DNA of 64,000 bases from Lentisphaerota bacterium. GTDB lineage: Bacteria > Verrucomicrobiota > Kiritimatiellia > PWTM01. A program made the position numbers and the translations under genes. Location: assembly GCA_016873715.1 (NCBI GenBank), contig VGWF01000003.1:4907-68906 (forward strand), given 5' to 3'. Position 1 is the first letter of the stretch, and each line of letters starts with the position of its first letter. Positions 5,124 to 33,994 of the stretch are shown here, one piece after another. Under the pieces are notes generated by a model. It was given only the letters and a program-made list of their open reading frames with translations, had not been told where the DNA came from and made no database searches.

Positions 5124-5235
5124 GGCACTCCCGCGAGCCCGCACAGTGCCCGATTCCGGGGCGCACGGCAACCGCCGCCCAAATCCACGGCTACGCTTGG
5201 TCGATAGGAACGAACGATGCTTCGAGGGCCCCCTG

Positions 5236-8704: not shown

Positions 8705-8738
8705 GCGCCCTGCGGGCGGCGCGGGGCGGGCCGGTCGC

Positions 8739-9452: not shown

Positions 9453-9477
9453 ACGCCGCCCGCATCCGCCCCGGCCC

Positions 9478-10632
9478 ATGAAGTACCTCCCCCTCGTCTG
9501 GGCCGGCCTCCGGCGCCGGAAGCTGCGGTCGCTGCTGACGCTGCTCTGCATCCTCGTCGCGTTCGTCCTCTTCGGCTACCTCTGCGCCATCGGCCGCGCG
9601 ATGGACCAGGGCGCCAGCGTCGCCGGGGCCGACCGTCTGATGGTCCGCCACCGCGTCTCGATCACGCAACCGCTCCCCGTCAGCTACAAGGCGCGCATCG
9701 AGCGCATCCCCGGCGTCGCGCTTGTCGCGCATTTCTCCTGGTTCGGAGGCATCTACCGCGAACCCGGCAACTTCTTCCCCCAGATGGCCGTCGAACCCGG
9801 CCCCCACCTCGCCATGTACCCGGAGTACCTGCTGCCGGAGGACCGCAGGCAGGCGTGGCTCGCCACCCGCACCGGCGCGATCGCCGGCCGCAGGACCGCG
9901 GAGAAGTACGGGTGGAAGGTCGGCGACCGGATCCCGATCCAGGCCACCGTCTGGCGCCGGATGAACGGCGACACCACCTGGGAGTTCGACCTCGTCGGCA
10001 TCTTCGACGGCGCGAAGCCGGAGACCGACACCACCGGGTTCTTTTTCCGCTACGACTGCCTCGACGAGGGGCGGCTCTTCGGCAAGGGGATCGTCGCCTG
10101 GTACACCGTCCGCGTCTCGAACCCGGAGGAGGCCGCCGACGTCGCGCGGCGGATCGACGAGGAGTTCGCCAACGCCTCCGCCGAGACCAAGTCCGAGACC
10201 GAGGGCGCGTTCCTCCGCGGCTGGGCCCGGCAGATCGGCGACATCTCCACGATCCTCGCCTCCGTCCTCGGCGCCGTCTTCTTCACCATCCTCCTCGTCG
10301 CCGGCAACACGATGGCGCAATCGGTCCGGGAGCGAACCTGCGAGATCGGCGTCCTCAAGGCCCTCGGGTACACCCATGCCGGCGTGCTCTCGCTGGTCCT
10401 CGCGGAGTCGTGCCTTCTCTCCGTCCTCGGGGCCGCGGGCGGACTGGCCGTTGCCTCGGTCCTCGTCGCCGCCGGCGATCCGACCCGCGGCGCGATGCCG
10501 ATGTTCCACTTCCCGGCCGCGGACGTGCTCGCCGGCCTCGGGTGGGCGCTGGCGCTGGGCGTCGTCGCCGGGCTCCTGCCGGCGCTCCACGCGATGCGGC
10601 TCCGCGTGGCCGACGCGCTGCGGAGGACCTAG
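9478..10632 (+). CDS. ABC transporter permease, MacB/FtsX family
   Basis: RRKLRSLLT, periplasmic domain, NTMAQSVRERTCEIGVLKALG. Confidence 0.93.
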   Translation: MKYLPLVWAGLRRRKLRSLLTLLCILVAFVLFGYLCAIGRAMDQGASVAGADRLMVRHRVSITQPLPVSYKARIERIPGVALVAHFSWFGGIYREPGNFFPQMAVEPGPHLAMYPEYLLPEDRRQAWLATRTGAIAGRRTAEKYGWKVGDRIPIQATVWRRMNGDTTWEFDLVGIFDGAKPETDTTGFFFRYDCLDEGRLFGKGIVAWYTVRVSNPEEAADVARRIDEEFANASAETKSETEGAFLRGWARQIGDISTILASVLGAVFFTILLVAGNTMAQSVRERTCEIGVLKALGYTHAGVLSLVLAESCLLSVLGAAGGLAVASVLVAAGDPTRGAMPMFHFPAADVLAGLGWALALGVVAGLLPALHAMRLRVADALRRT

Positions 10633-10655
10633 CGGGCGCGGGGCGCCCCACGGAC

Positions 10656-10699
10656 GACGGAAGACGGAAGACGGAAGACGGAAGAACGGGAGAACGGAA
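10656..10699. repeat. Short tandem array (GACGGAA)x4 plus (GAACGGRA)x2
   Basis: Read directly between the two permease genes. Confidence 0.9.
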
Positions 10700-10704
10700 G
10701 AACA

Positions 10705-11904
10705 GTGATGGGATTCGTCAGCTGGCTCTCGCAGGTCGGCTCGGTCACGAAGCTGAGCCTCGAGACGATCGTCGAGCGCAAGGGCGCCTCGGCCGCCGCC
10801 GTCTTCGGCATCGCGGGGGTCGTCGCCGTCTTCGTCGCGGTCCTGTCCGTCGCGGAGGGCTTCCGCCGCGTGATGACCGCCTCCGGCGACCCGTCGGCGG
10901 CCATCGTGATGCGCGCCGGATCGGACACCGAGATGATGAGCATCCTCTACGGCACGGGGGTCCGCGTCATCGACGACGCGCCCGGCATCGCGCGCTCCGC
11001 CTCCGGTCCCCTCGCTTGCCGCGAGCTGTTCGTCGTCATCAACCTGCCCCGGCGCTCCAGCGGCATGGATGCCAACGTCCCGCTGCGCGGTCTCGGCGCC
11101 AATGCCTTCGAGGTCCACGACCGGGTCCGCATCGTCGAGGGCCGGCGGTTCACGCCCGGCTGCAACGAGGTGATCGTCGGCGTGGGCGCCTCGCACGAGT
11201 TCGCCGGCCTCGACCTCGGCGCCGAACTGAAGGTGGGGCGCAACCGGTGGAGGGTCGTCGGGATCTTCACCGCCGGCGGCGGGCTGCCGGAGTCCGAGAT
11301 CTGGACCGACGCCGTCGTGCTGCAGGCGGCCTACCACCGCGGCAACAGCTTCCAGACCGTCCGCGTCAAGCTCGCATCGCCCGACTCGTTCGACGCGTTC
11401 CGCGACGCCCTTCTCGCCGACCCGCGCCTGACCGTGAAGGCGATCCGCCTGCAGGACTACTACGCCGAGCAGTCGCGCACCGTCCAGAACCTGATCACCG
11501 GCCTTGGCACCCTCGTCGCGGCGCTGATGGGCATCGGCGCCTCGTTCGGCGCGCTGAACACGATGTACTCCGCCGTCGCCACCCGCACGCGGGAGATCGC
11601 CACCCTACGCGCCCTCGGTTTCGGAAGCGCCCCGATCGTGATCTCCATCCTCGCCGAGTCGCTCGTGCTCGCGTCGCTCGGCGGGCTTGCCGGCGCCGCG
11701 GTGGCCTACGGGATCTTCGACGGCTTCCGCGCCGCCACCCTCAACTGGCAGAGCTTCAGCCAGGTCGCCTTCGCCTTCGACGTCACCCCCGCCCTCCTCG
11801 CACAGGGCGGCGGCTGCGCGATCCTCATCGGCGTCATCGGGGGCCTCTTCCCCGCCCTCCGCGCCGCCCGCATCCCGGTCGCCACCGCCCTGCGCGAGAC
11901 CTGA
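10705..11904 (+). CDS. ABC transporter permease, MacB/FtsX family
   Basis: NTMYSAVATRTREIATLRALG, GLFPALRAAR. Confidence 0.93.
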   Translation: MMGFVSWLSQVGSVTKLSLETIVERKGASAAAVFGIAGVVAVFVAVLSVAEGFRRVMTASGDPSAAIVMRAGSDTEMMSILYGTGVRVIDDAPGIARSASGPLACRELFVVINLPRRSSGMDANVPLRGLGANAFEVHDRVRIVEGRRFTPGCNEVIVGVGASHEFAGLDLGAELKVGRNRWRVVGIFTAGGGLPESEIWTDAVVLQAAYHRGNSFQTVRVKLASPDSFDAFRDALLADPRLTVKAIRLQDYYAEQSRTVQNLITGLGTLVAALMGIGASFGALNTMYSAVATRTREIATLRALGFGSAPIVISILAESLVLASLGGLAGAAVAYGIFDGFRAATLNWQSFSQVAFAFDVTPALLAQGGGCAILIGVIGGLFPALRAARIPVATALRET

Positions 11905-12032
11905 CGGACCGGGCCGCCGCCGAAGCCCCGGATCGGACGCCGGATGGGGCTGCCGGATAAGGCTTGCCTTCGGCCCGCGAGGTGATGAGGATGTCGGGAA
12001 ACGCGGACGGCCACCGTCCGAAAGGAGCCGGC

Positions 12033-13031
12033 ATGACAACCCGACGCTCGAGCGTAACCGCCCTGACCCTTGCCACCCTGCTTGCCGCACCGCACGCGGC
12101 CCCGGCCATCGGCGCGTGGGACGGGCCGGAGACCGGCTCGCTCCGGATCTGGAACGCGCAGGCCGGCCTGTCCCTCCGGGGCTCGGTCGGCTATCTCAAC
12201 GGCGAGGCGCGGGAACTCGTCTACTCGGACCTCGACGGCTACCGGCACCAGGTCAGCGAATTGATCTGGGACCTCCGCGACCTGGCCATGGTCGGGATCT
12301 CCGGTTCCGCGCACTTCGCCAAGCGGTTCCACGTCCGGGCCGCGTTCTGGACGCCCGCGAACGAGGGCGGCGGCCAGATGGAGGACTACGACTGGCTGGT
12401 CTACGAGCCCGGCGCGCCGTGGACGGACTACTCGCTGAGCGACGTCGACGTCACCAGCGCGTCGATCGTGGACCTGGCCTTCGCCGTGGACATCGTCTCC
12501 TACAAGGGCTTCACCCTTCGCGGGATGGCCGGCTACAAACAGGACTACTGGGCGTGGCGCGACTATGGCCTCCTCCACGTCTACTCCTCCAACCCCTACA
12601 GCCCGGGCGGCTTCCGCGACGACGTGGCGAACGAGGACGGAGCCACCGGCATCGAGTACGAGCAGGTCTTCCGCGTCCCCTACTTCGGCGGCGAGCTGGA
12701 GTTCGCCCGCGGGGCCTGGGAGGCGAACACCTACCTCAAGTTCAGCCCGATCGTCACGGCCAACGACGAGGACCTGCATATCCACCGCAACCTGCTGTTC
12801 GAGGAGTCGTTCGACGGCGGGACCTTCGTCGCCGCGGGCGTGCAGGTCCTGCGCACCTTCGAGTCCGGTCTCTACGTTGCCGGCGCGTTCGACTTCCAGA
12901 CCATCCCCGAGTTCGACGGCGACATGACGATCACCGACTACGACACCGGGGAAGTCTCGTCGGAATCCGACAACGCCGGGATCAGCCACTTCGCGTACAT
13001 GCTGTCCCTGTCCCTTGGCTACGCCTTCTGA
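12033..13031 (+). CDS. Omptin family outer-membrane protease
   Basis: RELVY, VSELIW, MEDYDWL, WTDYS, IEYEQVFRVPY, NDEDLH; C-terminal LGYAF; SD AAAGGAG. Confidence 0.9.
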   Translation: MTTRRSSVTALTLATLLAAPHAAPAIGAWDGPETGSLRIWNAQAGLSLRGSVGYLNGEARELVYSDLDGYRHQVSELIWDLRDLAMVGISGSAHFAKRFHVRAAFWTPANEGGGQMEDYDWLVYEPGAPWTDYSLSDVDVTSASIVDLAFAVDIVSYKGFTLRGMAGYKQDYWAWRDYGLLHVYSSNPYSPGGFRDDVANEDGATGIEYEQVFRVPYFGGELEFARGAWEANTYLKFSPIVTANDEDLHIHRNLLFEESFDGGTFVAAGVQVLRTFESGLYVAGAFDFQTIPEFDGDMTITDYDTGEVSSESDNAGISHFAYMLSLSLGYAF

Positions 13032-13082
13032 TCCGGCGGTGAGGCCAGGCCCGGCCGACGGCTCGCGTGGAGTGAGGTCCGC

Positions 13083-15509
13083 ATGAGCGGGATGGTCCCA
13101 GCCGGCGGTTCCGTCCGGCCGGTCCTGATCCTCGTCGCCGCCGTCTGCGCCTTCCTCGCGTCATGGCCGCACCGGCCCGGCGTGCCGACCTGCCTGCGCG
13201 TCCGGGTCGCGATTCCCGGACCGCCGAACGCCGAGGCAACCCTGGAGGTCGTCCACGCCGGGGTATCGACCCACCTGGCGCTTCTCGACGACGGCACCGG
13301 CGCCGACGTCGCGGCGGGCGACGGGATCCGTTCGGCGGAGTGGGCCCCGCCGGGACCCGCCGTGCTCGTCCCCGTGGGCCTGTGGCTGCGCCCCGCCGAC
13401 GGCTCTCCCGCGGTGAGGGTGCACTCCGCGATCCATCCCCTGCTGCGGGGGCCGAACGACATCGCATGGGAGGTCATCGACGGCCCGTCGCCGGAGGTCC
13501 GCGAGCGGGCGCATCCCGGCCCGCGTCGTGCCGCCGCCGCCGCCGAGGGCCGCCGGACCGCGCTCAACATGGGCTTCGTTCTCGTCGCGCTGGGGGTCGT
13601 GCTGCGCTGCGTCCGCCGCCCCGTCGGGGATGGCGGGTCCCCCGGGGCCGATGAGGCCGTGGCGCGACGCATCCCGGTCCGGGTCTCCGATGCGTTGTTC
13701 TGGTTCGCCATCGCGGTCTTGTGGACATGGCCCGCGGCGCTGGGAGGACCCGCCCTCTTGATCGGCCGGCAGTTCGACACGCCGTCGACGATCTGGGTCA
13801 TGCACGCCGCCCACCGCCTGCTGCGCTCGTTGATCGATCCGTACGCCGAGTGGCCGCTGCAGGCCGACCACCACGGCCTCGACAGTTTCCTGATGCTGCC
13901 CATCGCGGCGCTGCTCCATGCGCTGCACGTGGCGCGGGTCCACGCGGGGCTGCAGATCCTCGGCGTGGCGCTGTCCGGCTGGGCGGCGCAGGGATTCGCC
14001 CGCGCCACGGGCGTGCGGCGCCCGTGGGAAACGTTCGCGGGGCTGACCTACGCGTGCTCCGGCGCCATGGCCTCCGCGCTGCTGGAAGGGCAGGTCTACC
14101 ACGCGCTGAATCCCTGGCTCCCGCTTTTCGGGTGGGCCTTCTGGCGCACGACCTCCGCCGACGCCCGGCCGCGGGACGCCCTCGCCGCGGCGGTCGCCTT
14201 TGCGCTCTGCCTGGCCACGTCCGGCTACGTCGGCGTGTCCGCGATGATCGTGGGGGCGGGCCTCGTCGCCGGCGCCGCGCGGGGCGGCGTCCGGGTGCCC
14301 CGCCGTCCGGCCGTGCTGGCCGTGGCCGCCTGCGGCGCCCTCGCCCTCGCCTACGCGCTCACGGCCTTCGCGGACGCCCCGCTGCGACGGGACCTGAGCC
14401 TGTCGTCGATGCGGCTGGCCAGCGCCCATCTCGTCAGCCTGGCCGGGCCGACGCCCGAGACCGACCGCGCGGGCCAGTCGATGGCCGCCGCGATCTCCCC
14501 GGTGGTCCTGGCGTGGCTGGTCGCCGCCTTCGCGCTCGGGCGCGCGGGACCGCGGGCACGAACGCTCCTCTGGACCGGTGCGGCAGGGCTCCTGATCGCC
14601 CTGGGGCCGGCGTGGGCCCTCGACGCGCGGGGCGCATCGGTCCCGTCGCCGCTGCGGCTGCTCGTCGGAACGCCCTTCGATGTCATTCTCCGCTTCCCTC
14701 TCCGGTCGATGGGCGTGTGGAACCTCTGTGCGGGCATCGTCGCCTTCGGCGCGGCCCAGCGGCTGGCCGGCCGCGGACGCGGCACGGCGGCCGTCGTCGG
14801 CGCCCTGGCGGTGGCGCATGCCTTCCTGATCGTCGGACTTCCCTTCCGCCAGGCCGCGCAGCCGTTTCACGTTCCGTCCGCCTACCGCGAGGCCGGCGGG
14901 CCGGTGCTGGACCTCCACCCCGACCCGCAGGGGCTGCGCGACGAGATGTGGCTGATGGCCCGCGTATGCGCATGCCAGGTCGGCCACGGCCAGCCGATCG
15001 CCGACAACGCGGCCTCCACCGAGCCCGGAGGGCTCCCGCGCATGCGCCTCGGCCGATGGCTGCGGGACGAACTGGCGGCGGGGCGGGCCGACGCCGCGGC
15101 GCGGGCGCTCGGCGCCATGGGCTTCGCGGCGGTCGCCTTCCACGGGGACTTCTTCCCCCCGGAGGAGCGGTCGGTGATCGAGAACGCCCTTGGCCGCTTC
15201 GGCACGCGCCGCACCGTGAGCGCGGACGCCGGCGAGCGCCTTGTGCTGCAGGCGGTGCCGCCGCCGCCGGAGGCGCCCGGCGCGGCGGCCCGTCGGGCGG
15301 CGTACGACGCGGCGGTCGGCGGCCGGCCCGGCGCCGGCGTCGATCGCGACTCGGTCACCGCGCGCGACCTCGACATGGCCGGCGGCATCCGCGGCCCCGT
15401 CGCGCTCGCCGGATGGCTGGCCTTCGGTGTCATCGCGGTCGCATGGGTGCGGATCACGCGGCGCGCCGCGGCGGGCGCCGGAACGGGTGCAACGGACGCA
15501 ACTCCTTGA
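13083..15509 (+). CDS. Large polytopic membrane protein, GT-C/YfhO-like, with an N-terminal DDGxxxDxxAGDG (choice-of-anchor-X-like) domain
   Basis: LLDDGTGADVAAGDGIRSAEW; more than 10 hydrophobic segments; LRFPLR; periplasmic tail PVLDLHP...QVGHGQPI. Confidence 0.6.
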   Translation: MSGMVPAGGSVRPVLILVAAVCAFLASWPHRPGVPTCLRVRVAIPGPPNAEATLEVVHAGVSTHLALLDDGTGADVAAGDGIRSAEWAPPGPAVLVPVGLWLRPADGSPAVRVHSAIHPLLRGPNDIAWEVIDGPSPEVRERAHPGPRRAAAAAEGRRTALNMGFVLVALGVVLRCVRRPVGDGGSPGADEAVARRIPVRVSDALFWFAIAVLWTWPAALGGPALLIGRQFDTPSTIWVMHAAHRLLRSLIDPYAEWPLQADHHGLDSFLMLPIAALLHALHVARVHAGLQILGVALSGWAAQGFARATGVRRPWETFAGLTYACSGAMASALLEGQVYHALNPWLPLFGWAFWRTTSADARPRDALAAAVAFALCLATSGYVGVSAMIVGAGLVAGAARGGVRVPRRPAVLAVAACGALALAYALTAFADAPLRRDLSLSSMRLASAHLVSLAGPTPETDRAGQSMAAAISPVVLAWLVAAFALGRAGPRARTLLWTGAAGLLIALGPAWALDARGASVPSPLRLLVGTPFDVILRFPLRSMGVWNLCAGIVAFGAAQRLAGRGRGTAAVVGALAVAHAFLIVGLPFRQAAQPFHVPSAYREAGGPVLDLHPDPQGLRDEMWLMARVCACQVGHGQPIADNAASTEPGGLPRMRLGRWLRDELAAGRADAAARALGAMGFAAVAFHGDFFPPEERSVIENALGRFGTRRTVSADAGERLVLQAVPPPPEAPGAAARRAAYDAAVGGRPGAGVDRDSVTARDLDMAGGIRGPVALAGWLAFGVIAVAWVRITRRAAAGAGTGATDATP

Positions 15510-15534
15510 AGCCAAGGACCGGAAGCGGTATCCT
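15506..15534 (+). promoter_or_regulatory. Putative sigma70 promoter of the oxidoreductase-rSAM-U32 operon
   Basis: TTGAAG-N17-TATCCT; GAGGG SD before ATG 15579. Confidence 0.5.
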
Positions 15535-15578
15535 TCGGCCCGGCTGCACAGCGGCCGGCGAACGAGCGAGGGCATCCG

Positions 15579-16892
15579 ATGGCGGTGGTGGTCATAGGGG
15601 CCGGGGTCACCGGCCTGACGGTCGCTCTGCACTGCCTTCGCAACGGGCATCGCGTCGTGGTCCTGGAGAAGGCCGCGGAGGTCGGCGGACTCTGCCGGAG
15701 CTACCGGTACGACGGCTTCACGTTCGACATCGGCCCGCACCGCCTCTTCTCCGGCGACCCGGAGATCGACGGCTACTTCGCCTCCATCCTCGGGCCGGAC
15801 CACGTCGCCGTGCCGAGGGTCAGCATGGTCAAGCTCAACGGCCGCTACCACGAGTGGCCGCTGAACGTGAAGTCCGTGGCCGGCATGTCGCCCGGCCTCA
15901 TGCTCCGCTGCATGGTTGACCTGCTCGGCGGCCGCGGCCGCGGCGACGACGTGCGCACGCTCCGGGACTACGTCATCTCGCGGTACGGGGAGACGATCTA
16001 CCGGACCTTCTGGGAGGGCTACACGGAGAAGTTCCTCGGGCTCCCCTGCGAACGCGTCGACGCCGAGTGGGGCAGCCTGAGCGTCGCCCGGTCGGTCGTC
16101 GACCGCGCCCGCCGCCCTCGCGGTCTGCCGGATCTCGTCCGCAGCGTCCTGCACAATTCCTCCAACGACCTCCGCTTCCGGTACCCGGCGGAGGGCATGG
16201 GCGGCTTCGCCGACCGCATGGCCGCGATGATCCGCGAGGCGGGCGGCGAGATCCGGCTCGGCGCCCCCGTGACCGCGCTGGACCTCGCCGGAGATCGGAT
16301 CCGCTCCGTCACGGCGGGCGGCGCGCGGATCGAAGCCGACCAGTTCGTCTGGACCGGCCCGCTGCCGGAGCTCTGCCGCCTCGCCGGCAGGCCCGAGCCG
16401 GATCTCCGATTCCTCGATCTGCTGCTGCTGAACGTCGAAATCGATGCCGAGCCGGCGGACCGCTGGCAGTGGATCTACTTCCCCGACAAGCGGTACGTGT
16501 TCTCCCGCGTCAGCCGCCCCTGCGCCTTCCATCGCGGCATGGCGCCGGCCGGGACGACCGGGCTGTGCGTCGAGATCACCCTGCCGGCGGGCACGCCCGG
16601 CGCGGCCGAAACGGAGGAACTCGAGCGGACGGCCGTCGCCCAACTCGTCGAGGCGCGTCTGCTTCCCTCCCCGGCCCACGCACGGCGCATCCACCGCGAG
16701 ATCGTCGCGGATGCGTACCCGATCTACCGGCTCGGATTCCGCCGCGACGTGGACGCGGCGATCGAGGGGCTGCGCCCGGTCCGCAACCTGCACCCCGTCG
16801 GACGCGGCGCGCGGTTCGAGCACGACAACATCGACGAGGCCGTCGCGTCCGCGCGCGCGGTGGCCGCGCGCCTCGGCGCCGCGGGAGCCTGA
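15579..16892 (+). CDS. FAD-dependent oxidoreductase, HemY/UDP-galactopyranose-mutase-like family
   Basis: VVIGAGVTG, VGGLCRS, FDIGPHRL, FRYPAEGMG, WIYFPD, AYPIY, GRGARFEHDNID. Confidence 0.88.
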   Translation: MAVVVIGAGVTGLTVALHCLRNGHRVVVLEKAAEVGGLCRSYRYDGFTFDIGPHRLFSGDPEIDGYFASILGPDHVAVPRVSMVKLNGRYHEWPLNVKSVAGMSPGLMLRCMVDLLGGRGRGDDVRTLRDYVISRYGETIYRTFWEGYTEKFLGLPCERVDAEWGSLSVARSVVDRARRPRGLPDLVRSVLHNSSNDLRFRYPAEGMGGFADRMAAMIREAGGEIRLGAPVTALDLAGDRIRSVTAGGARIEADQFVWTGPLPELCRLAGRPEPDLRFLDLLLLNVEIDAEPADRWQWIYFPDKRYVFSRVSRPCAFHRGMAPAGTTGLCVEITLPAGTPGAAETEELERTAVAQLVEARLLPSPAHARRIHREIVADAYPIYRLGFRRDVDAAIEGLRPVRNLHPVGRGARFEHDNIDEAVASARAVAARLGAAGA

Positions 16893-16895
16893 TCC

Positions 16896-18248
16896 GTGGA
16901 CGCCGCACCCGCCACCGCCGGCCCGGGCGCGATCCGCGCGACGCACGCCCTCTGCCCGACCTGCCTGCGCAGCGTCCCCGCGGAGGTCCGCGAGGAGGAC
17001 GGCGAGGTCCGCCTCGTGAAGCAGTGCCCCGTGCACGGCGTCTCGCGCGTGTTCCTCTCGTCCCATCCGGACTACTACCGCGACCTGAACCGGTTCTACT
17101 TCTCGGTGATGAGCCGCAGCCACCCGCAGCGCGACTACATCCTCCGCCTGACCGAGCGCTGCAACCTCGAGTGCCCGATCTGCCTCGCCGGCGCGAACCA
17201 GGACGTTCTGGCCGACTTCTCGCTCGAGGACGTGCGCCGGCTCACCCGCCGGCACCGGCGGACCAAGTTCGACCTGATGGGCTGCGAGCCGACGCTGATG
17301 GACACGCTTCCGGACATCATCCGCGAGATCGCCGCGTCCGGGAACATCTCAGCCCTCCACACCAACGGCCTCGCCCTCGAGGACCCGGCCTACGTCGCGC
17401 GCCTCAAGGCGGCGGGACTCGACGAGGTCCACCTGCAGTTTGACGGGTTCGACGACGACGCCTATCGCACGATCCGGGGACGGCCCCTGCTCGAGGGGAA
17501 GCGGAAGACGCTGGCGAACCTCGCGGCGCAGCGGATCCCGGTCGACCTCGTCATGACGATCCTGGCCGGCGTCAACGACAAGGAGATCCTCCCGGTCCTC
17601 GAGTTCGGCCTGCGGCAGCCGAACGTGAAGGAGGTCTTCTTCCTCGGCTGCCGGATGCTCGGCCGCGCCGCCGGCGGATTCGAATCGCAGCAGCTGCTGC
17701 CGGACCAGGTGATCGACCTTCTCGAGGGCGCCACCGGCGGCCGGATCCGGCGCGAGGACGTCCGCCGCTTCCAGAAGCTCTACTTCGCGATGCTCTCCGT
17801 CTTCGGCGTCCGGAAATGCCTCTACATCCAGCATTACCTGCTGATGCGCGGCCGCGACGGCGCCTACCGGACGATCGCGGAGACCCTCGACCTCGACCGC
17901 CTCGAACCCGCGCTGGAGCGCTACCGCGAACGGGTCGAGCGCGGCGGACGCCGCGGCGCGGCGGTCCGCCTGGCCCTCGAGTGCCTTCCGCTCCTGCTGG
18001 CGCCGCGCGCGCTCCCGCTGCTCGCCGAGTTCGCGGCGCTGACGCTGCTCATGGCGCTCGGGTTCAACCTCCGGCGCGTGCGCCGGCGGAGCGTGCTTCT
18101 GGGCTACATCACCGCCTGCGATCCGCTCATCTACGACGCGGACGTCGCCGACAACTGCGGCAAGGGGGAGATCTCGCGCGACCTCGGCGTCCAGGAGTCC
18201 GGCGCGCTGGCCAACGTGATGCGCGAGCACCGGTGGAGGGCGACGTGA
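16896..18248 (+). CDS. Radical SAM protein of the MJ0619/Tes (COG1964-like) family
   Basis: N-terminal CPTC...CPVHG, core LTERCNLECPICLA, GCEPT, TNG, LQFDG, GVND. Confidence 0.85.
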   Translation: MDAAPATAGPGAIRATHALCPTCLRSVPAEVREEDGEVRLVKQCPVHGVSRVFLSSHPDYYRDLNRFYFSVMSRSHPQRDYILRLTERCNLECPICLAGANQDVLADFSLEDVRRLTRRHRRTKFDLMGCEPTLMDTLPDIIREIAASGNISALHTNGLALEDPAYVARLKAAGLDEVHLQFDGFDDDAYRTIRGRPLLEGKRKTLANLAAQRIPVDLVMTILAGVNDKEILPVLEFGLRQPNVKEVFFLGCRMLGRAAGGFESQQLLPDQVIDLLEGATGGRIRREDVRRFQKLYFAMLSVFGVRKCLYIQHYLLMRGRDGAYRTIAETLDLDRLEPALERYRERVERGGRRGAAVRLALECLPLLLAPRALPLLAEFAALTLLMALGFNLRRVRRRSVLLGYITACDPLIYDADVADNCGKGEISRDLGVQESGALANVMREHRWRAT

Positions 18249-19348
18249 TCCGCATCCTCTCGCCGGTGCTCCACGCGCGCGAGGTCGGGCCCGTCGTTGC
18301 GGCCGGGGCCGCGGAGATCTACTGCGGGGTCCTGCCCGGCGCCTGGAAGAAGGCCTACTCCAACGTCGCCTCGCTCAACCGGCGCGAGTGGGCCTCGGCC
18401 AACATGGCCAGCCTCGAGGATCTCCGCGACGTCGTGGACGCGGCCCACGCGCTGCGGACGCCCGTCTTCCTGACGCTCAACGCGCTCTACACCGAGGCGC
18501 AGTACCCCGAGGTTCGGCGCGTCGTCGGGGCCGCCGCCGAGTGCGGGGTCGACGCGCTCATCATCGCCGACCTCGGGCTGCTGCTCGCGGCCCGCGACAT
18601 GGGCTGGCGCGGCGCGCTCCACGTCAGCACGGGCGGAACGACGTTCAACGACGAGGCCATCGCGTTCTACCGCGAGCTCGGCGCGGACCGGGTCATCCTC
18701 CCCCGCCACAACCGCGTCAACGAGATCGTCGCGATGGCGGCCCGCCACCGCGACATCGAGCTGGAGACGTTCGTCATGAACTCCGGCTGCATGAACATCG
18801 ACGGGTTCTGCACCCACCACCACGGCGTGAAGGAGCTGACGCGCCCCCTCGGGTGGAACATCCCGAAGATGCTCCACGCCGACCACCACGTGCTCCGCTG
18901 GCTCAAGCGCATGCCCGCCTGGCTCCGGTCCCGGGCCAGCCGCCTCGCGTCCCGCTCCGCCGACAGCTCCTGCCTGCTGGCCTACGACGTGAAGGTGACC
19001 TCGCCCACCGCGACGGACGCCGAACTCCGGCAGGTCCGCGAGTCGCTGCGGAACAGCTTCGGCGTCTTCACGGGCTTCGACACCTGCGGCGCCTGCTCGC
19101 TGTGGGACTTCGAGCACGCCGGAATCACGAGCGTGAAGATCGTCGGCCGCAACAATCCGCTCGACAAGAAGGTGCGCGACGTCCGCTTCCTGCGCGGGTG
19201 CCTCGACCTCCTCGCGGACCCCTCGCTGACGCGCGATCGCTTCTCGGACCTCGCGCGCGAGGCCTATGCGCGGATCTACGGATTCCCGTGCGACCGGTGG
19301 TGCTACTTCCCCGCGGAAGACCTCGCCCTCGCGGAGGACCACCTGTGA
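18245..19348 (+). CDS. Peptidase U32 family Fe-S protein (UbiU/TrhP/RlhA-related)
   Basis: AGAAEIYCG, LTLN, IIADLG, HVST, RVILPR, GCMNIDGFC, CGAC, SVKIVGR. GTG overlaps the upstream TGA. Confidence 0.9.
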   Translation: MIRILSPVLHAREVGPVVAAGAAEIYCGVLPGAWKKAYSNVASLNRREWASANMASLEDLRDVVDAAHALRTPVFLTLNALYTEAQYPEVRRVVGAAAECGVDALIIADLGLLLAARDMGWRGALHVSTGGTTFNDEAIAFYRELGADRVILPRHNRVNEIVAMAARHRDIELETFVMNSGCMNIDGFCTHHHGVKELTRPLGWNIPKMLHADHHVLRWLKRMPAWLRSRASRLASRSADSSCLLAYDVKVTSPTATDAELRQVRESLRNSFGVFTGFDTCGACSLWDFEHAGITSVKIVGRNNPLDKKVRDVRFLRGCLDLLADPSLTRDRFSDLAREAYARIYGFPCDRWCYFPAEDLALAEDHL

Positions 19349-20160
19349 GCGCGGCGGATCCCTATGCCGGCATCGAGCGCGCGGTCGCGTTCGCGGCGCT
19401 GGACCGCCTGCGCGCGTGGGACGGCCCCTGCGACCGCGTCTACTTCGGCCACGAGTTCTGCCAGCGCCTGCTCCCGTCGGCGGCGGACGCCGCCGCCGCG
19501 GCGCGGGCCGCCGCGGAACGGGGGCGCGCCTTCACCCTCGTGACGCCCCTGGTCAGCAACGCGGGGCTCGCGCGCGTCCGCGACCTGGTGCCCGCGGCCC
19601 GCGCGGCGGCCGGGGCGGCGGGCCTCGAGGTCGTCGTCAACGACTGGGGCCTCCTGCACTGGATGCACCGCGAGCACCCGGGTGTGCCGCTGGCGCTCGG
19701 CCGGCTGCTGACGAAGCAGAAGCGGGGCCCGCAGATCCTGCGCGTGGCCGCCCGGCTTCCGCCCCGCGCCATCGAGCATTTCCAGCGCTCGAACGTGGAC
19801 GTGCCCCACCTGGCCGACCGGCTGCAGGCGTGGGGCGTGCGCCGGGTGGAACTGGACAACCTCCTCCAGGGCCTGCGCCGCGACCACGGCCTCCCCGCGT
19901 CGCTGTACCATCCGTTCGCGTACGTCACGACGACGCGCCTGTGCCTGATGGCCGGCAGCACGCGGCCGGGCAAGAACCTCCGCTCGATGGGGCCCTGCGC
20001 GCTGGAGTGCCGGCGGTTCGAGGCCGTGCTGACGCATCCGGACATGCCGGCGCCGCTGCTGCTCAAGGGAAACACCCAGTACATCCGCAACGACCGCCTG
20101 CCCGACGATCCGGCGGGGCTGCGGATCACCCGCCTCGTGCTTCAGCCGGAACCGGCCTGA
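19345..20160 (+). CDS. Second, shorter U32-fold protein (UbiV-like partner)
   Basis: RVYFGHEFCQRLLP, VVNDWGLL, LGRLL, RVELDN, TTTRLC, CALEC, KGNTQY. GTGA coupling. Confidence 0.8.
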   Translation: MSAADPYAGIERAVAFAALDRLRAWDGPCDRVYFGHEFCQRLLPSAADAAAAARAAAERGRAFTLVTPLVSNAGLARVRDLVPAARAAAGAAGLEVVVNDWGLLHWMHREHPGVPLALGRLLTKQKRGPQILRVAARLPPRAIEHFQRSNVDVPHLADRLQAWGVRRVELDNLLQGLRRDHGLPASLYHPFAYVTTTRLCLMAGSTRPGKNLRSMGPCALECRRFEAVLTHPDMPAPLLLKGNTQYIRNDRLPDDPAGLRITRLVLQPEPA

Positions 20161-21389
20161 TCGGCGCGGCGGACGGCGTCCGCGATGCGATCGAGGTCGC
20201 GGTCCGTCAGCTCCGGATACAGCGGGAGGTGCAGGATGCGGTCCTCCACCCGCGCGGCGGACGGGCACGATGCCGCGTCGCCGCCGAGCCCCGGCAGCGA
20301 GGCGCAGTTGGACATGTAGCCCGCGGCCGAATCGACGCCCATTCCGCGCAGGCGGTGGGCGAAGCGGTGGCGGTCCGGCCGCGTCACGGCGAAGCTCACG
20401 TAGATGTGGTCGCCGCCTTCGGCCGCCGGCGAGGGGAGTCCGCCGCACCCGGCTTCCTGCAGCCGCCGCCACAGCCCCCGCCCGCGGTCGCGCCGCGCCG
20501 CGTTCTTCGCCTCCAGCGAGCGCAACTGCCGGAGGCCCGCCCGCGCCTGGGCCTCGGCGGGATGGACGCGCACCGCATCGAGCCCGGCGGCCGTCAGCGG
20601 CACCGGCGCCTCCTCGAAGGCGCGCTGGACCAGGTCCGGCCCCTCGCGGCCGGTGGCGCGGACGATCGGGCCGAGGACGGCCGAGAAGAGGGCCCGCCGG
20701 GTGGCGGCGCGCATCGCGAGGGCGCCGAGGGCTTCCTTCGCCAGCCGCTGCCGGGCCGGCGCGCGGAACCCGCGGACCGCGGCGGCAACCGCCTCGTGGG
20801 CGTCCCGGTCGCGGCAGACGACCATCCCGCCCCCGAACGTCGTGAAGTTCTTCGTCACGCCGAAGGTGAAGCAGGCGGCCCGGCCGAGGGTTCCCGCGGC
20901 GCGCCCGCCGATCCGCGCGCCGAGACACTGGGCGCAGTCCTCGATCAGGTCGATGCCCCGGGGGGCGCAGAGCGCCTCCAGCGCGGCCATGTCGCACGTG
21001 CGGCCGAACAGGTGGGTCGGGACCACGGCCCGGGTCCGTTCCGTCAGCACCGCGGCGACGGAGGCGGGCGACAGCTCGTAGGTCTCCGGATCGACATCGG
21101 CATAGACGGGCGTGAGGCCGGCGAGCCGGACGACCGCGGGCATCGCGAAGAACGTGAAGGCGGGCAGGACGACCTCCGACCCGGGCGGGTAGCCGAGCGC
21201 CCGCAGCACGAGCCAGAGCGCCATGCGGCCGGACGGAACGAAGACCGCGCGATCGCAGCCCAGATGGGAGGCGAAGGCCCGCTCGAACTCGGCCGTGGCC
21301 GGGCCGGCCGGCCCCCGGGCGCGAAGCGCGTCCGCCAGGAAGGCCAGCGTCTCGCCCCACCCCACGGTCGGCGCGAATCGCGGAATCAT
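20142..21389 (-). CDS. DegT/DnrJ/EryC1/StrS PLP-dependent aminotransferase
   Basis: PSGRMAL, PAFTF, THLFG, IEDCAQ, TFGVTKNFTTFGGG, LHLPLYP. Confidence 0.9.
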   Translation of the reverse strand: MIPRFAPTVGWGETLAFLADALRARGPAGPATAEFERAFASHLGCDRAVFVPSGRMALWLVLRALGYPPGSEVVLPAFTFFAMPAVVRLAGLTPVYADVDPETYELSPASVAAVLTERTRAVVPTHLFGRTCDMAALEALCAPRGIDLIEDCAQCLGARIGGRAAGTLGRAACFTFGVTKNFTTFGGGMVVCRDRDAHEAVAAAVRGFRAPARQRLAKEALGALAMRAATRRALFSAVLGPIVRATGREGPDLVQRAFEEAPVPLTAAGLDAVRVHPAEAQARAGLRQLRSLEAKNAARRDRGRGLWRRLQEAGCGGLPSPAAEGGDHIYVSFAVTRPDRHRFAHRLRGMGVDSAAGYMSNCASLPGLGGDAASCPSAARVEDRILHLPLYPELTDRDLDRIADAVRRADQAGSG

Positions 21390-21421
21390 GTACCGGCCGC
21401 CTCCTCCGCGTCCGGCCGCGG

Positions 21422-22762
21422 TCAGTTGATCTTCCCGACGCGCCGGTAGGAGCCGTTGTACTTCTTCGTGAACGCCTGCAGGAAGTCGCCGCCGTCCTTG
21501 TCGATCGCGTAGCCGATCGTGTGGACGATCGGCGGCTTCTTGCCCTTCTTCACGTAGCACTGCTCGTTCAGCAGCGTGAAGTGCTCGATGAAGTCCTCGA
21601 TGGACCACCACCGCATGTTGTCCGGCATCCCCGGCGGCTGCGGCCGGTGCGGAAGCGGGCGGACCGGCGTCCGACGGTTCTCGAAGTGCCCCTCGCGCGC
21701 GCCGTGGACGGCGCCTTCCCTGATCGACGCCCCGCGCGGCGGAACCCAGACGCGTTCGGTCCGGTACTCCATCCCCGCGGCGGCCTGGTCGTAGGCCGCC
21801 AGGGCGTCCGCATTGGCCTTGCGCCACTCCTCCATCCTGGCGTTCCACGCGGCCTGCTGGTCGGCGGTGAGGCTCTTGCTGACGCGCGGGATGCCGTCGG
21901 AGATGATCAGGATCGTGTCGGCCCCCTGCAGGAACGCGGCGGTGAGGGCGAGGTCGAGGCGCGTCGTCCCGCCGCCGGCCTTGAGGCCCAGGTCGACGGA
22001 CTTGATGTTGCCGGAATCGAGCCCGTAGTTGTTCTTGGTGTTGTACGGCTGGAGGAACTTCTTCGCGTCGCGCTTGTTGTCCTCCGTCGCGGGGACCATC
22101 TCGTCCTTGAAGGTCTGCCCGGCGTCGGCGAACGCGACGACGTTGAACAGCGTCTTCTCGTTCAGCGCGTCCATGACGCTGCGAAGGCGCGACTTCACGC
22201 GCTCGAAGCCGTCGAATCCGCCGCGTTCCTCCTCGATCATGCTGACGGACACATCGACGCAGACCATGATCTTCTCGCCGCGCCCGCGGATGCCGAAGAA
22301 GTCGAAGGCCGACACGCCCTGGCCGAAGCCGCCGAGGCCGTAGCCCGTGCCCAGGCCCGCGCCCAGCCCGACGCCCGTGATCGCCTTGAACTTGGGCTGG
22401 AAGGAGGTGCGGACGACCTTGGGGTCGACCTTGATCTCCGGCAGCGCGAAGTTCGAGGGCTTCGTCGCCACCAGCCGCGGCATCACCGCCGGGCGGCTGG
22501 AACTGCGCTGGCGCTTGGAGACCTTGACCTGGTGCTCGAGCTTGCGCGGCTCGTAGGTCTTGATCGGCGGCGGGGCGGTGAACACGGTGCGCTCCTCCAG
22601 GAACGACCGGATGACCACCCACGAGCCGAAGATCAGCATGCCGACGACATGGACGGCGAGGCTGATGCCGGCGACGATGAGCAGCGTCTTGCGTCGCTGC
22701 CGCGACAACCGGGCATACCCCCACCCGGAGAGGATGAGGTTAAGATCCAGTTTCGGCTTCAT
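21422..22762 (-). CDS. Single-TM protein with Pro/Lys-rich linker and C-terminal VWA domain
   Basis: TM ISLAVHVVGMLIF; MIDAS DVSVS, GGGTT, IISDG; VHTIGY. Confidence 0.85.
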   Translation of the reverse strand: MKPKLDLNLILSGWGYARLSRQRRKTLLIVAGISLAVHVVGMLIFGSWVVIRSFLEERTVFTAPPPIKTYEPRKLEHQVKVSKRQRSSSRPAVMPRLVATKPSNFALPEIKVDPKVVRTSFQPKFKAITGVGLGAGLGTGYGLGGFGQGVSAFDFFGIRGRGEKIMVCVDVSVSMIEEERGGFDGFERVKSRLRSVMDALNEKTLFNVVAFADAGQTFKDEMVPATEDNKRDAKKFLQPYNTKNNYGLDSGNIKSVDLGLKAGGGTTRLDLALTAAFLQGADTILIISDGIPRVSKSLTADQQAAWNARMEEWRKANADALAAYDQAAAGMEYRTERVWVPPRGASIREGAVHGAREGHFENRRTPVRPLPHRPQPPGMPDNMRWWSIEDFIEHFTLLNEQCYVKKGKKPPIVHTIGYAIDKDGGDFLQAFTKKYNGSYRRVGKIN

Positions 22763-22775: not shown

Positions 22776-23213
22776 TCATTCGCCGCCCGCGGCGAAGGTC
22801 ACGTTCTTGATCCCGGCCCTGGCGCATGCGTTCATCACGTCGATCATGCGCTGGTGCTTCGTGGCGTCGTCGCCCTGCAGCGTCACCATCGGCTCGGCCT
22901 TGGCGGCCGACGAGGCCATCCGGTAGCGCGTCAGCGTGGAGACGAGTTGCGGCAGGTCTACCGAGTCCGGCGCGTCGAACTCCAGGCCGTTGAGCACGAC
23001 CCGGCCGGTCTCGCGCACCTCGATGACCTGTTCGTCCGCCATGTCCACCGACTGCGCCTGCGCGAGCATGCCGGGCAGGCGGATGCCGAGGTCGGCCTCG
23101 GACCGGACGAGGCTGGCCGTGGCGATGAAAAAGGCGAGCAGCAGGAAGACCATGTCGATCAGCGACGACACGTTGATGTCCGGCTCGTCGACCTCGTAGG
23201 TGGGCAGTTTCAT
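22776..23213 (-). CDS. exbD: ExbD/TolR family protein
   Basis: INVSSLIDMVFLLLAFF with the TM Asp; LQGDD...VMNAC. Confidence 0.92.
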   Translation of the reverse strand: MKLPTYEVDEPDINVSSLIDMVFLLLAFFIATASLVRSEADLGIRLPGMLAQAQSVDMADEQVIEVRETGRVVLNGLEFDAPDSVDLPQLVSTLTRYRMASSAAKAEPMVTLQGDDATKHQRMIDVMNACARAGIKNVTFAAGGE

Positions 23214-23635
23214 GGCGCCGCCTCCAGTTCCGAGGGCGCGTACACGCCGAAGATGAAGTCGTCGACGCCGATCGCGGCCATGGCGGTGAGGACCTTCTTG
23301 ACCTCCTTGTGCTTCACGTTGGCGTCGGCGCGAACGTAGACCTTGGTCTTCGGCTCGGTCTTGAGCCGCTCGGTCACCTCGGCCTTGAGTTCATCGAGCG
23401 TCGCGGCCTTGTCGCCGCTGAAGATGGAGCCGTCGGCGAGGATGTTGACCGTCCACCGGTCGGGGCGCTCCTTGGGGACGACGCCCTTCGAGGCGACGGG
23501 CATCTCCATCTTCATCGTCCGGTTCTGGCTGACGGACGAGGCGCACATGAAGAAGATGAGCAGGAGGAAGACCATGTCGATCATGGGCGCCATCTGGAAC
23601 TTGGCTTCCTCGGTATCTTCCTGCACGAAGCGCAT
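23210..23635 (-). CDS. exbD: ExbD/TolR family protein
   Basis: FQMAPMIDMVFLLLIFF; VYVRAD. Confidence 0.92.
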   Translation of the reverse strand: MRFVQEDTEEAKFQMAPMIDMVFLLLIFFMCASSVSQNRTMKMEMPVASKGVVPKERPDRWTVNILADGSIFSGDKAATLDELKAEVTERLKTEPKTKVYVRADANVKHKEVKKVLTAMAAIGVDDFIFGVYAPSELEAAP

Positions 23636-23651
23636 GGCGCGTCTCCGGGGA

Positions 23652-24524
23652 TCAGGACTGGGGCTGGGCCGGGGCGGCCGGCGCGGCGGCCGGCTGCGGC
23701 ATCGGCGCGGTCAGATCGGGAAGCGTGACCTGGTCGAGCGGAAGCTCGCCGGCGCGCAGCCGGTCCATGATCGCGGAGAGATGGTGCGTCAGGTTCCCGG
23801 CGAGACGGCCGATCCGCGCCATGTTCCCCTGGAACCGGGACTTCAGGTAGAAGTAGAAGAACATGAACGGAATGCCGACGATGAGGCCGAACGCGGTCGT
23901 GATCATGGCCTCGCCGATGTCGTTGGCGAGTTTCTCGGGGTCGCCCATCGCGCCGAGGCCGATCTTCTGGAACGCCTTGATCATTCCGCTGACCGTGCCG
24001 AGAAGCCCGAACATCGGGGCGACGGAGGCGATGATCGAGAGGTAGCTGATCGGGCGCAGGCCGTTGGTGTTCTCCTCGACGGCGGCCTCCTCCATGGCCT
24101 TCTCGATCGTGGCGACGTCGGTGATGCCGTCGCTCAACCGGAGCAGGCCGGCGTTCAGGATGTTCGAGAAGACGCCGGGCGTGCCGCTGCAGGTCGCGCT
24201 CGCGTTGCGGAAGTCGAGGTTCGTGATCAGGTTCTGGAGCACGGGTACGAGGGACGACTGGACCATCTTCGGCTCGCGCAGGAAGATGAACCCGAAGATC
24301 GTCAGCGCGGCGCCGGCGATCGACAGCGCGCCGATCGGGTACATGGCCCATCCGCCGGTGACCCACATCCCCCACAGGGTGACGGACTGATCCTTCGCGG
24401 CCGCGGCGGCCGGCGCCGCGGCGGCGGCGGCAGCGGCGGGCGCCTGCGCGAAGACGGCCTGCGCGAGGGCGCCGACCGTGACGGCGGCGAGCAGGAAGAA
24501 CACGGAACGGGTTCGGGTGGTCAT
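23652..24524 (-). CDS. exbB: MotA/TolQ/ExbB proton channel protein
   Basis: GGWAMYPI, APMFGLLGTVSGMI, IGEAMITTAFGLIVGIP. Confidence 0.93.
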   Translation of the reverse strand: MTTRTRSVFFLLAAVTVGALAQAVFAQAPAAAAAAAAPAAAAAKDQSVTLWGMWVTGGWAMYPIGALSIAGAALTIFGFIFLREPKMVQSSLVPVLQNLITNLDFRNASATCSGTPGVFSNILNAGLLRLSDGITDVATIEKAMEEAAVEENTNGLRPISYLSIIASVAPMFGLLGTVSGMIKAFQKIGLGAMGDPEKLANDIGEAMITTAFGLIVGIPFMFFYFYLKSRFQGNMARIGRLAGNLTHHLSAIMDRLRAGELPLDQVTLPDLTAPMPQPAAAPAAPAQPQS

Positions 24525-28398: not shown

Positions 28399-28468
28399 CG
28401 GGGGCATTGTTGCGGCATCGGGACGCCGCATGCAACAAGAAAGAGGGCCGGGGAAGCCCCCGGACCGG

Positions 28469-30156: not shown

Positions 30157-30157
30157 C

Positions 30158-30571: not shown

Positions 30572-30587
30572 CGCCCGGCCTCCGGCG

Positions 30588-33940: not shown

Positions 33941-33994
33941 ACCGACACACTCCTCCAGGCCCTGCCCGGGGCACCCTGCATATGGCAGAATGAC

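Follow-up and report, generated by a model that had tools for sequence, protein, structure and literature searches.

The radical S-adenosylmethionine (SAM) enzyme Tes, or GDGT-MAS (PDB 7TOL/7TOM; NCBIfam NF045702), forms C–C bonds between lipid tails, and its metal sites include a rubredoxin-like iron bound by three Cys and a His (PMC13459092, available portion of the text). Bacterial homologues of Tes are treated as no more than candidates for membrane-spanning lipids in the available portions of PMC8941075, PMC13159169 and PMC13459092. In the U32 family, UbiU and UbiV form a heterodimer, with E. coli UbiV binding its cluster via C39, C180, C193 and C197 (10.1101/587956), and U32 hydroxylation has been proposed to use prephenate and to release phenylpyruvate (PMC10990095); both statements are again drawn from those portions of the sources that could be consulted. 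Relatives of Tes and of the U32 family are encoded side by side in the genome of an uncultured, lake-dwelling Lentisphaerota bacterium (GenBank assembly GCA_016873715.1). The DNA analysed here, referred to as the window, is a 64,000-nucleotide stretch of contig VGWF01000003.1 (positions 4,907 to 68,906, forward strand), and coordinates are positions within it unless another locus is named. Four plus-strand genes spanning 15579–20160 encode a flavin adenine dinucleotide (FAD) enzyme, a Tes-like radical SAM enzyme (TesL), the U32 protein U32a and a probable second U32 protein, U32b. With a probability of roughly 0.5, judged from protein families and gene linkage, these four genes would be the detached TesL-U32 arm of a widespread oxygen-independent pathway that tailors a hydrophobic molecule of the envelope, most likely a membrane lipid that becomes a glycolipid.

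The firmest statement that can be made is that the system is a conserved multi-enzyme, oxygen-independent set, which in this genome includes seven enzymes of the radical SAM type. The four genes are one arm or fragment of that larger set and not a self-contained pathway. The set is common to uncultured bacteria of many phyla and most likely serves in the modification of an envelope lipid or glycolipid. As far as searched, it was previously undescribed: a full-text literature search found no paper linking U32, Tes-like, B12-radical SAM and DegT genes, subscription papers and supplementary tables (which perhaps list the family as 'Tes homologs') lying outside that search.

The G+C content of the window is ca. 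72%, and genes were therefore called via third-position G+C (GC3), which is 0.92–0.99 in the called frames. The first gene (15579–16892, plus strand, ATG to TGA) encodes a PRK07208-like, FAD-dependent oxidoreductase of the amine-oxidase fold, 437 amino acids (aa) in length. TesL (16896–18248, plus strand, GTG to TGA) is a Tes/GDGT-MAS-like radical SAM enzyme of 450 aa with an N-terminal rubredoxin-like zinc ribbon. U32a (18245–19348, plus strand, GTG to TGA) is a divergent, UbiU-like U32 Fe-S protein of 367 aa, and U32b (19345–20160, plus strand, GTG to TGA), of 271 aa, is probably a divergent U32/UbiV-like TIM-barrel Fe-S protein. A 3-bp gap separates the first two genes, and GTGA start/stop overlaps join the second gene to the third and the third to the fourth; this coupling, noticed in an original prediction made on the same DNA, was reproduced to the exact coordinate from the sequence. 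Every one of the four starts has a GGAGG-like (Shine-Dalgarno-like) motif 4–8 nt on its 5' side, and the N-termini of U32a and U32b align with those of their homologues.

TesL, the U32 pair and their partners beside described families

TesL contains PF04055 (Radical_SAM, 67.2 bits) and PF23545 (Zn_ribbon_HMPTM, 54.5 bits), and is homologous to Tes over nearly its whole length. A profile of 24 relatives matches PDB 7tol with an E-value of 8.7e-55 (profile positions 9–65 and 80–415 of 446), and TesL as a single sequence matches it with 3.9e-35. Among 24 family members, C20, C23, C44, C89, C93, C96, C308, C408 and C421 are invariant and H47 is nearly so. C89, C93 and C96 make up the CX3CX2C radical SAM motif. 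C20, C23 and C44 with H47 form a rubredoxin-like N-terminal site of three Cys plus His, in a region that aligns to 7tol residues 22–78. The remaining three, C308, C408 and C421, appear from the alignment to fall in the C-terminal region of 7tol, where the catalytic auxiliary cluster of Tes is bound. The three-Cys-plus-His domain, the CX3CX2C motif and a hydrophobic C-terminal segment are all features that Tes shares with TesL.

TesL differs from Tes in being bacterial and ca. 75 residues shorter, and in lacking a Cys-rich insert: the stretch that precedes the radical SAM motif of Tes is a gap in the pairwise alignment with 7tol. The missing insert is presumably the N-terminal [4Fe-4S] site of Tes described in the available text of PMC13459092, and the TesL family has no further invariant Cys for a second N-terminal auxiliary [4Fe-4S] cluster (three Cys plus His). 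On the Tes model (NF045702), TesL scores 129.7 bits against a cut-off of 450. Its best-scoring named model is that of TrsS (NF045646), with 181.3 bits, likewise far below a cut-off of 490; TrsS, a radical SAM (seleno)protein, is only listed, with no function given, in the accessible part of PMC13188914. Because of these two scores and the missing Cys-rich stretch, the protein is named TesL here: judged by its sequence it is Tes-like, but not a Tes. The prediction of a Tes-like radical SAM enzyme is thus borne out as homology, while identity with Tes is not, one of the two auxiliary clusters being absent. Given a score below the Tes cut-off and the lack of the N-terminal cluster insert, the chemistry of TesL may therefore differ from that of Tes. 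TesL is also embedded with FAD, U32, DegT and B12-radical SAM partners, none of which is needed by Tes.

When 8000 candidates were scored, 346 proteins belonged to the TesL family at E ≤ 1e-10. Both domains are present in all 120 relatives listed, and three of these have a hemerythrin domain too. Mss, Ger and the 'bacterial Tes homologs' of Zeng et al. 2022 are likewise anaerobic radical SAM enzymes acting on lipid tails, from bacteria of anoxic habitats in phyla that overlap those of TesL (PMC8941075, PMC13159169). The match of TesL (3.9e-35) is weaker than the 1e-50 threshold of those studies, whose query differed, and no U32, FAD, DegT or B12-radical SAM synteny is mentioned in the portions of those papers that are accessible. 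Mss and Ger, considered as a description of the present gene set, gave no match to it in the same portions.

U32a is a clear U32 protein, with 107.1 bits on PF01136 against a gathering score of 22.4. It does not reach the equivalog models, scoring 83.6 bits on UbiU (cut-off 440) and 59.2 on TrhP (cut-off 534). Its invariant Cys are C182 and C189 (a CX6C pair), C243, C281, C284, C349 and C353. U32b has no Pfam or NCBIfam match at E ≤ 0.01. The 'U32 Fe-S pair' of the original prediction therefore stands on family models for U32a, and U32b owes its U32 identity to later tests: it is probably a U32 protein, an assignment backed by profile comparison, a structure model, its relatives and its Cys pattern. 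The profiles of U32b and U32a align in hhalign with a probability of 65% (E 5.9e-5). The predicted structure of U32b is a U32-like TIM barrel, the structural match to U32 lying just ca. 1 Z unit above unrelated TIM barrels. In a Foldseek search with the model, chitinase-like TIM barrels came first by E-value and 5d88 was 12th, yet 5d88 had the top TM-score (0.49/0.53). The U32b sequence itself gave chance-level matches to solved structures (best E 0.0067). A precomputed PF01136 match exists for 2 of the 120 U32b relatives listed, and all of those with a name are called 'hypothetical protein'. Among 1.84 billion representatives, the U32b family counts 2068 members at E ≤ 1e-3, 1527 at E ≤ 1e-10 and 626 at E ≤ 1e-30.

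The pair resembles UbiU-UbiV in several respects. The two genes are adjacent and nearly always stay together, and the first encodes a clear U32 protein with a CX6C pair. The second product is shorter and has a Cys near residue 39 and a distal C-Xn-C-X3-C; the invariant Cys of U32b are C39, C200, C218 and C222 (CX160CX17CX3C), to be compared with the four that are given for UbiV in the available text cited above, a CXnCX12CX3C-type motif in which the first Cys is likewise distant from the rest. The differences are equally plain. U32a scores far below the UbiU cut-off, U32b fits no U32 model, and neither UbiT nor ubi genes are found near the pair; its partners are instead radical SAM enzymes, DegT and polytopic membrane proteins, and some genomes have multiple paralogous copies.

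Genetic evidence for the pairing of U32a with U32b comes from the overlapping genes and from paired paralogues. Four of five genomes whose U32a has no adjacent U32b have a strong U32b relative elsewhere. Relatives of U32b also occur elsewhere in three of five genomes whose TesL locus had no U32 gene within 8 kb; one of these genomes (that of locus L005) has eight matches, and in its TesL cluster a U32 pair is ca. 10 kb away from TesL. In six regions of two other genomes, seven more U32a/U32b pairs were found, with the partners within 2.1 kb of each other in all seven and directly adjacent in six. These further pairs adjoin polytopic membrane proteins of ca. 620 aa or a 985-aa PMT_2 protein. 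The ca. 620-aa proteins are one family with a DUF2079-matching protein of locus L048, and are distant homologues of an 808-aa protein encoded upstream of the operon.

The genomes G205 (L100–L104) and G202 (L103) each have several paralogous U32a/U32b copies. In these regions, one to four DUF2079-like membrane proteins of ca. 620 aa, encoded in tandem, adjoin each copy, and some copies are near a small radical SAM, GT2, GDSL lipase or Rce1-like protease gene. Two library proteins join U32b to class I methyltransferase domains. In a 1220-aa protein (P0356), U32b is combined with B12-binding, radical SAM, GT1 glycosyltransferase and methyltransferase domains; P0356 may be a true fusion or may result from faulty gene calling.

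On contig C167, the genome of the window has another U32 gene, which is canonical and TrhP-like (PF01136, 215 bits; TrhP, 194 bits), and the U32 pair of the window is therefore an extra. The concern that the pair might be ordinary U32 hydroxylases is not borne out, the canonical copy being the one on C167.

The FAD enzyme matches PF01593 (Amino_oxidase, 77.9 bits) and PF13450 (59 bits). Its best NCBIfam model is PRK07208.1-4 (184.8 bits, cut-off 389), and it falls below every equivalog cut-off, including those of UDP-galactopyranose mutase (UGM; 31.8 against 303.75), HpnE (61.4 against 283) and the CrtI family (69.3 against 238). The best solved relative is the UDP-galactopyranose mutase 4dsg, at E 1.5e-11. 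On the far side of the operon, the predicted DegT aminotransferase was confirmed: a convergent minus-strand gene (20142–21389), which overlaps the end of U32b by 19 bp, encodes a 415-aa pyridoxal phosphate-dependent aminotransferase of the DegT/DnrJ/EryC1 family (PF01041, 236.4 bits against a gathering score of 19.8). It is under all NCBIfam equivalog cut-offs, the best being 140 bits against 375.

Upstream of the operon, 13083–15509 (plus strand) encodes a polytopic membrane protein of 808 aa with ca. 10 predicted transmembrane segments and no Pfam or NCBIfam match. It has only four relatives besides itself. In hhalign its profile matches the DUF2079-like family, as a distant relative, with 94.2% probability (E 1.2e-7, 387 columns), and one member of the ca. 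620-aa family, that of L048, matches DUF2079 at 5.4e-8. The Atlas lead is to ArnT/DUF3367-type clusters (score 0.94). An AF2 model made from a 5-sequence alignment was too poor to use (pLDDT 46, pTM 0.30). The label 'GT-C-like' for this gene thus draws on the Atlas lead and the 94% hhalign match to the DUF2079-like family, and is a putative one; DUF2079 is a member of the GT-C clan.

The gene set in other genomes and elsewhere in this one

Gene neighbourhoods were compared in one genome per species, at the best 80 of 109 loci with a TesL relative, with flanks of 8 kb and with the proteins of the window and of contig C25 (from the same genome) as queries. Among the 60 loci whose sequence extends 2.3 kb or more downstream of TesL, 16 have U32a no further than 400 nt downstream of it, and U32b comes after U32a in 11 of these 16. 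In total, 19 of the 80 loci have U32a and 13 have U32b, all 13 being among the 19. The synteny check proposed with the original prediction thus shows that the genes co-occur elsewhere, and the U32-linked loci carry seven phylum labels: Verrucomicrobiota, Lentisphaerota, Omnitrophota, Planctomycetota, Chloroflexota, Vulcanimicrobiota and Bacillota.

Other members of the set have their own patterns of linkage. In 24 of the 71 loci whose sequence extends 1.5 kb or more upstream, the FAD gene immediately precedes TesL, and 31 loci have an FAD gene in all. A small radical SAM gene occurs in 37 of the 80 loci and a B12-radical SAM gene in 32. A DegT homologue was found in 10 of the 19 loci with U32a versus none of the 61 others, and IorA or POR-gamma in 5 of the 19 versus none of the 61. 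Because most FAD-TesL neighbours have no U32 gene within 8 kb, and DegT is found solely with U32, FAD-TesL and the U32 pair plus DegT behave as separable sub-modules.

A quick maximum-likelihood tree of TesL was made from 79 of 81 rows, two rows of less than 380 aa having been dropped. The tree groups by neighbourhood type, with a stand-alone clade of 33 rows and an FAD/small-radical-SAM clade of 21 rows, and the U32-linked rows fall in three well-supported groups. Since related rows share labels, this is clustering rather than co-evolution.

A compact form of the set was found in an Omnitrophota locus (L012), with 12 genes and no gap larger than ca. 65 nt. The order is a PMT_2 GT-C protein, FAD, IorA, POR-gamma, DegT, a 344-aa radical SAM, TesL, U32a, U32b, a B12-radical SAM, a PEMT-like methyltransferase and a second B12-radical SAM. 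IorA of this locus scores 673.8 bits, above the cut-off of 650.9. In the genome of the window (5.13 Mb in 289 contigs, 97.6% complete), orthologues of the other members are dispersed. Contig C25 has the small radical SAM (46% identity to that of L012), a 360-aa radical SAM (36–41%), a GNAT gene and four B12-radical SAM genes, the best of which have 47% (B12a) and 39% (B12b) identity to those of L012. IorA is on contig C24 (43%) and PEMT on contig C116 (38%), and no gene of this genome other than the DegT gene of the window matches the DegT of L012 over its full length. Of the claim that the operon is one coupled four-gene pathway, the coupling is upheld and the completeness is not, with other members on C25, C24 and C116. 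The small radical SAM is likewise on another contig in all four relatives of the Planctomycetes-Verrucomicrobia-Chlamydiae (PVC) type, at 56–76% identity.

The whole C25 locus is kept in the nearest relative at 62–87% identity. Beside the small radical SAM gene, it encodes a serine-palmitoyltransferase (Spt)-like alpha-oxoamine synthase (382 bits) and a 391-aa GNAT-like N-acyltransferase (Atlas 0.98), both of which have 77–80% identity in the nearest relative. Together, Spt and GNAT could be read as a ceramide synthase.

The second half of the set on C25 (genome G000) spans L092:4941–18966, L090:2742–3821 and L093:1–4036, and also includes a 612-aa protein with 8 transmembrane segments. In this genome the C25 locus is interrupted by a HlyD-ABC-MacB-OEP exporter, which the nearest relative (L105) does not have. 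A 966-aa protein encoded on C25 at L092:1753–4650 (plus strand) has NPCBM, a hydrazine-synthase-alpha middle domain (PF18582, E 6.4e-22) and a weak paired-CXXCH match. A small cluster of its own on contig C22 (L094:6787–11335, minus strand) encodes an LPG_synthase_TM membrane protein and a B12-radical SAM enzyme with 40% identity to B12a of the L012 cassette, together with one protein of the radical SAM/SPASM type and one resembling asparagine synthase.

Some TesL relatives are fused to hemerythrin. Of five annotated stand-alone loci, four have a hemerythrin-fused TesL, in unrelated contexts, and the fifth is unfused. The four (L034, L036, L046 and L054), from metagenome-assembled genomes labelled Myxococcota or 'proteobacteria', are N-terminal hemerythrin-TesL fusions of 631–707 aa. 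These may be an oxygen-sensing or oxygen-protected variant.

Proposed chemistry and alternative readings

As originally proposed, the best broad reading of this locus is still that a membrane lipid, glycolipid or surface glycan is tailored anaerobically, with each of the chemical steps inferred from protein families and gene linkage. TesL appears to keep three metal sites of Tes: the rubredoxin-like iron, the radical SAM cluster and the C-terminal auxiliary cluster. By analogy with the action of Tes between lipid tails, hydrogen abstraction by TesL from an unactivated carbon, in an alkyl or isoprenyl chain, would lead to a C–C bond. The radical SAM and B12-radical SAM enzymes of C25 could carry out further methylations or ring closures. 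If U32a and U32b act as a UbiU/UbiV-like two-cluster pair, they would hydroxylate the product without O2, taking the oxygen from prephenate and releasing phenylpyruvate.

The hydroxyl could then serve as a handle in either of two ways. The FAD enzyme might oxidise it and DegT might then introduce an amine by transamination, FAD dehydrogenases and aminotransferases being paired in this way in aminoglycoside pathways. Alternatively, it might be O-methylated, or glycosylated by the upstream DUF2079-like/GT-C-type membrane protein. Where clustered, IorAB could convert phenylpyruvate with the gain of reduced ferredoxin for the radical SAM enzymes; phenylpyruvate release would explain why an aryl-pyruvate:ferredoxin oxidoreductase is found solely in U32-bearing cassettes.

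A more ambitious version of this scheme is a long shot, in which the U32 pair would be the first prephenate-dependent, O2-independent hydroxylase of an envelope lipid, as opposed to a quinone ring or RNA base. With FAD and DegT it would take C-H to C-OH to C=O to C-NH2 (or to O-glycosyl or O-methyl) on Tes-like cross-linked chains, with IorAB recycling phenylpyruvate, and the full cassette might be a missing bacterial route to membrane-spanning, methyl-branched or ring-containing lipids of the branched glycerol dialkyl glycerol tetraether (brGDGT) type, which are produced in anoxic lakes and sediments. Membrane-spanning and branched ether lipids of bacteria are important as palaeoclimate biomarkers, and few of the genes and organisms that make them have been identified. 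The cassette, with a Tes relative and several B12-radical SAM enzymes, occurs in anoxic-water phyla suspected as producers, and so offers concrete candidate genes. If the scheme is true, prephenate-dependent hydroxylation would extend to a new substrate class, the substrates in the accessible literature so far being quinones and RNA. In the cassette, the U32 pair comes with radical SAM, aminotransferase, methyltransferase and glycosyltransferase partners built in. At E ≤ 1e-10 the U32b family comprises ca. 1500 representative clusters, all unannotated, and the 12-gene cluster of Omnitrophota, being compact, is a handle for heterologous expression.

Several observations weigh against lipid tailoring by a linked enzyme set. 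The score of TesL on the Tes model, the missing Cys-rich insert and the narrow structural margin of U32b, all given above, are among them. Known U32 substrates are aromatic or heteroaromatic rings (quinone precursors, RNA bases), with no aliphatic lipid among those in the available part of PMC11574389. Of the 37 loci whose flanks extend 6 kb or more on either side, 12 have TesL without any partner, and TesL therefore does not need the other enzymes. At E ≤ 1e-40, TesL was found in none of 200 other sampled genomes of the window's phylum, including four of the same family, and the system is therefore accessory and patchy there. The linkage counts come from related metagenome-assembled genomes and are non-independent; flanks of 8 kb can also miss members, as with the L005 pair, so that the same counts are underestimates. 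No RNA run was matched to positions 13000–21500 of the window.

Among the alternatives, a surface-glycan or polyprenyl-phosphate-sugar pathway is unlikely but deserves serious weight. DegT would make an amino sugar, the radical SAM, FAD and U32 enzymes would modify the sugar or its carrier, and a GT-C/DUF2079-like protein would transfer it in the periplasm to lipid A, protein or polysaccharide. The family assignment of DegT (236 bits) favours this: keto-sugar nucleotides are normal DegT substrates, and with GT-C-type neighbours a glycan fits as well as a lipid, which is a further point against the lipid. Polytopic GT-C/DUF2079-like proteins are beside the cassette in several lineages, one locus (L003) has a Wzy_C O-antigen-ligase-like gene and GT4 genes after DegT, one U32b fusion has a GT1 domain, and GtrA-like genes are present in the window at 4680–5171 and 56600–57091. 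The compact cassettes annotated, however, contain no nucleotidyltransferase or sugar 4,6-dehydratase, and the best-supported homology of the set is to an enzyme that couples lipid tails. TesL also stands alone in many genomes, and neighbours such as the PEMT-like and Spt-like genes suggest a lipid.

Tailoring of an isoprenoid quinone or aromatic cofactor is a doubtful proposition that starts from the U32 pair. In it, the pair would hydroxylate the ring, methyltransferases and DegT would decorate it (possibly giving an amino-quinone), and TesL and the B12-radical SAM enzymes would act on the prenyl tail. All characterised U32 hydroxylases act on aromatic rings, as far as the sources could be consulted, and UbiU is the best named match of U32a, though with a score of 83.6 against 440. 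The fusions of U32b to a methyltransferase fold of the UbiE/COQ5 type recall the hydroxylation-then-methylation of ubiquinone synthesis, and isoprenoid chain ends are targets of Tes-type enzymes in the same partial literature. Yet no prenyltransferase, decarboxylase or other quinone-pathway family is found among the 52 window products or in the annotated cassettes. The earlier remark that no ubi genes are nearby agrees with this, since none of the 52 products, when scanned against Pfam, matched a quinone-pathway family. To our knowledge, the described quinone pathways include neither GT-C-type proteins nor DegT.

It is very unlikely that the radical SAM set modifies a peptide or protein, in a manner like that of ribosomally synthesised and post-translationally modified peptides (RiPPs) or of lipoproteins, with the U32 pair and DegT as accessories. 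The small radical SAM and B12-radical SAM enzymes do match peptide-maturase models weakly, but the gaps in L012 (at most ca. 65 nt) leave no room for a precursor gene, the cassette radical SAM enzymes are without a SPASM domain, and there is no conserved peptidase or transporter typical of RiPPs. Chance adjacency, with a housekeeping RNA or quinone U32 pair beside an unrelated radical SAM gene, is disfavoured to the point of being hardly credible: U32 proteins are indeed common housekeeping enzymes (a PF01136 control matched 8 of 14 model genomes), but the start and stop codons overlap, the adjacency is kept under seven phylum labels, the genome has its separate canonical U32 gene, and U32a and U32b are far below the UbiU and TrhP cut-offs.

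Upstream region and other window content

The original prediction gave the operon its own sigma70-like promoter, and this did not hold up. A promoter scan of 13000–21500 found no site with at least 9 of 12 consensus positions. The weak promoter-like motif TTGAAG-17-TATCCT (15506–15534, plus strand), in the 69-bp gap before the first gene, matches 8 of 12 and is the sole match of that quality in the region; shuffled sequences have a mean of 1.05 such matches, with at least one in 70 of 100 shuffles, so that the count is no higher than in shuffled sequence.

Six same-strand genes precede the operon from position 7481 on, with gaps of 26–73 bp, and the transcription unit may therefore be longer than the four genes. 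They consist of an array encoding a HlyD-type adaptor, an ABC ATPase, two FtsX/MacB-type permeases and an omptin (7481–13031, plus strand; assigned by Pfam), followed by the gene of the 808-aa membrane protein. Whether the HlyD/ABC/FtsX/omptin array belongs to the unit is uncertain. Upstream of TesL in the closest relative (L001) are an omptin gene and a homologue of the 808-aa gene (56% identity). The upstream ABC genes are not conserved in the other loci examined. An export role was considered for the MacAB-type exporters that adjoin both halves of the system, and was not adopted: they are absent at the matching place in the nearest relative and in other loci. A 446-aa gene after DegT was likewise not counted in the unit; its product has a transmembrane anchor and a weak VWA match (E 7e-4), and no homologue was found in the 80 loci.

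The omptin-family outer-membrane protein is encoded at 11964–13031 (plus strand; PF01278, E 1.2e-48), between the MacB-type permeases and the 808-aa gene. At 57% identity, it keeps the same position in L001. The stretch occurs in contigs of lake-water metagenomes, several of them possibly from the source sample.

Elsewhere in the window are two large signalling proteins unrelated to the cassette: a 1194-aa Ser/Thr kinase with leucine-rich repeats (34588–38172, plus strand) and a 1033-aa hybrid histidine kinase with two receiver stretches (59705–62806, minus strand). Housekeeping genes are found in two minus-strand blocks, 22776–34084 and 40930–50485. These include ExbD-ExbD-ExbB, a 946-aa TPR protein, ribF, truB, rbfA, infB and nusA, as well as lpxD, skp, bamA, dnaB, rplI, ssb, rpsF, pth, L25 and prs. 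From the envelope genes in the window, the organism is diderm with lipopolysaccharide.

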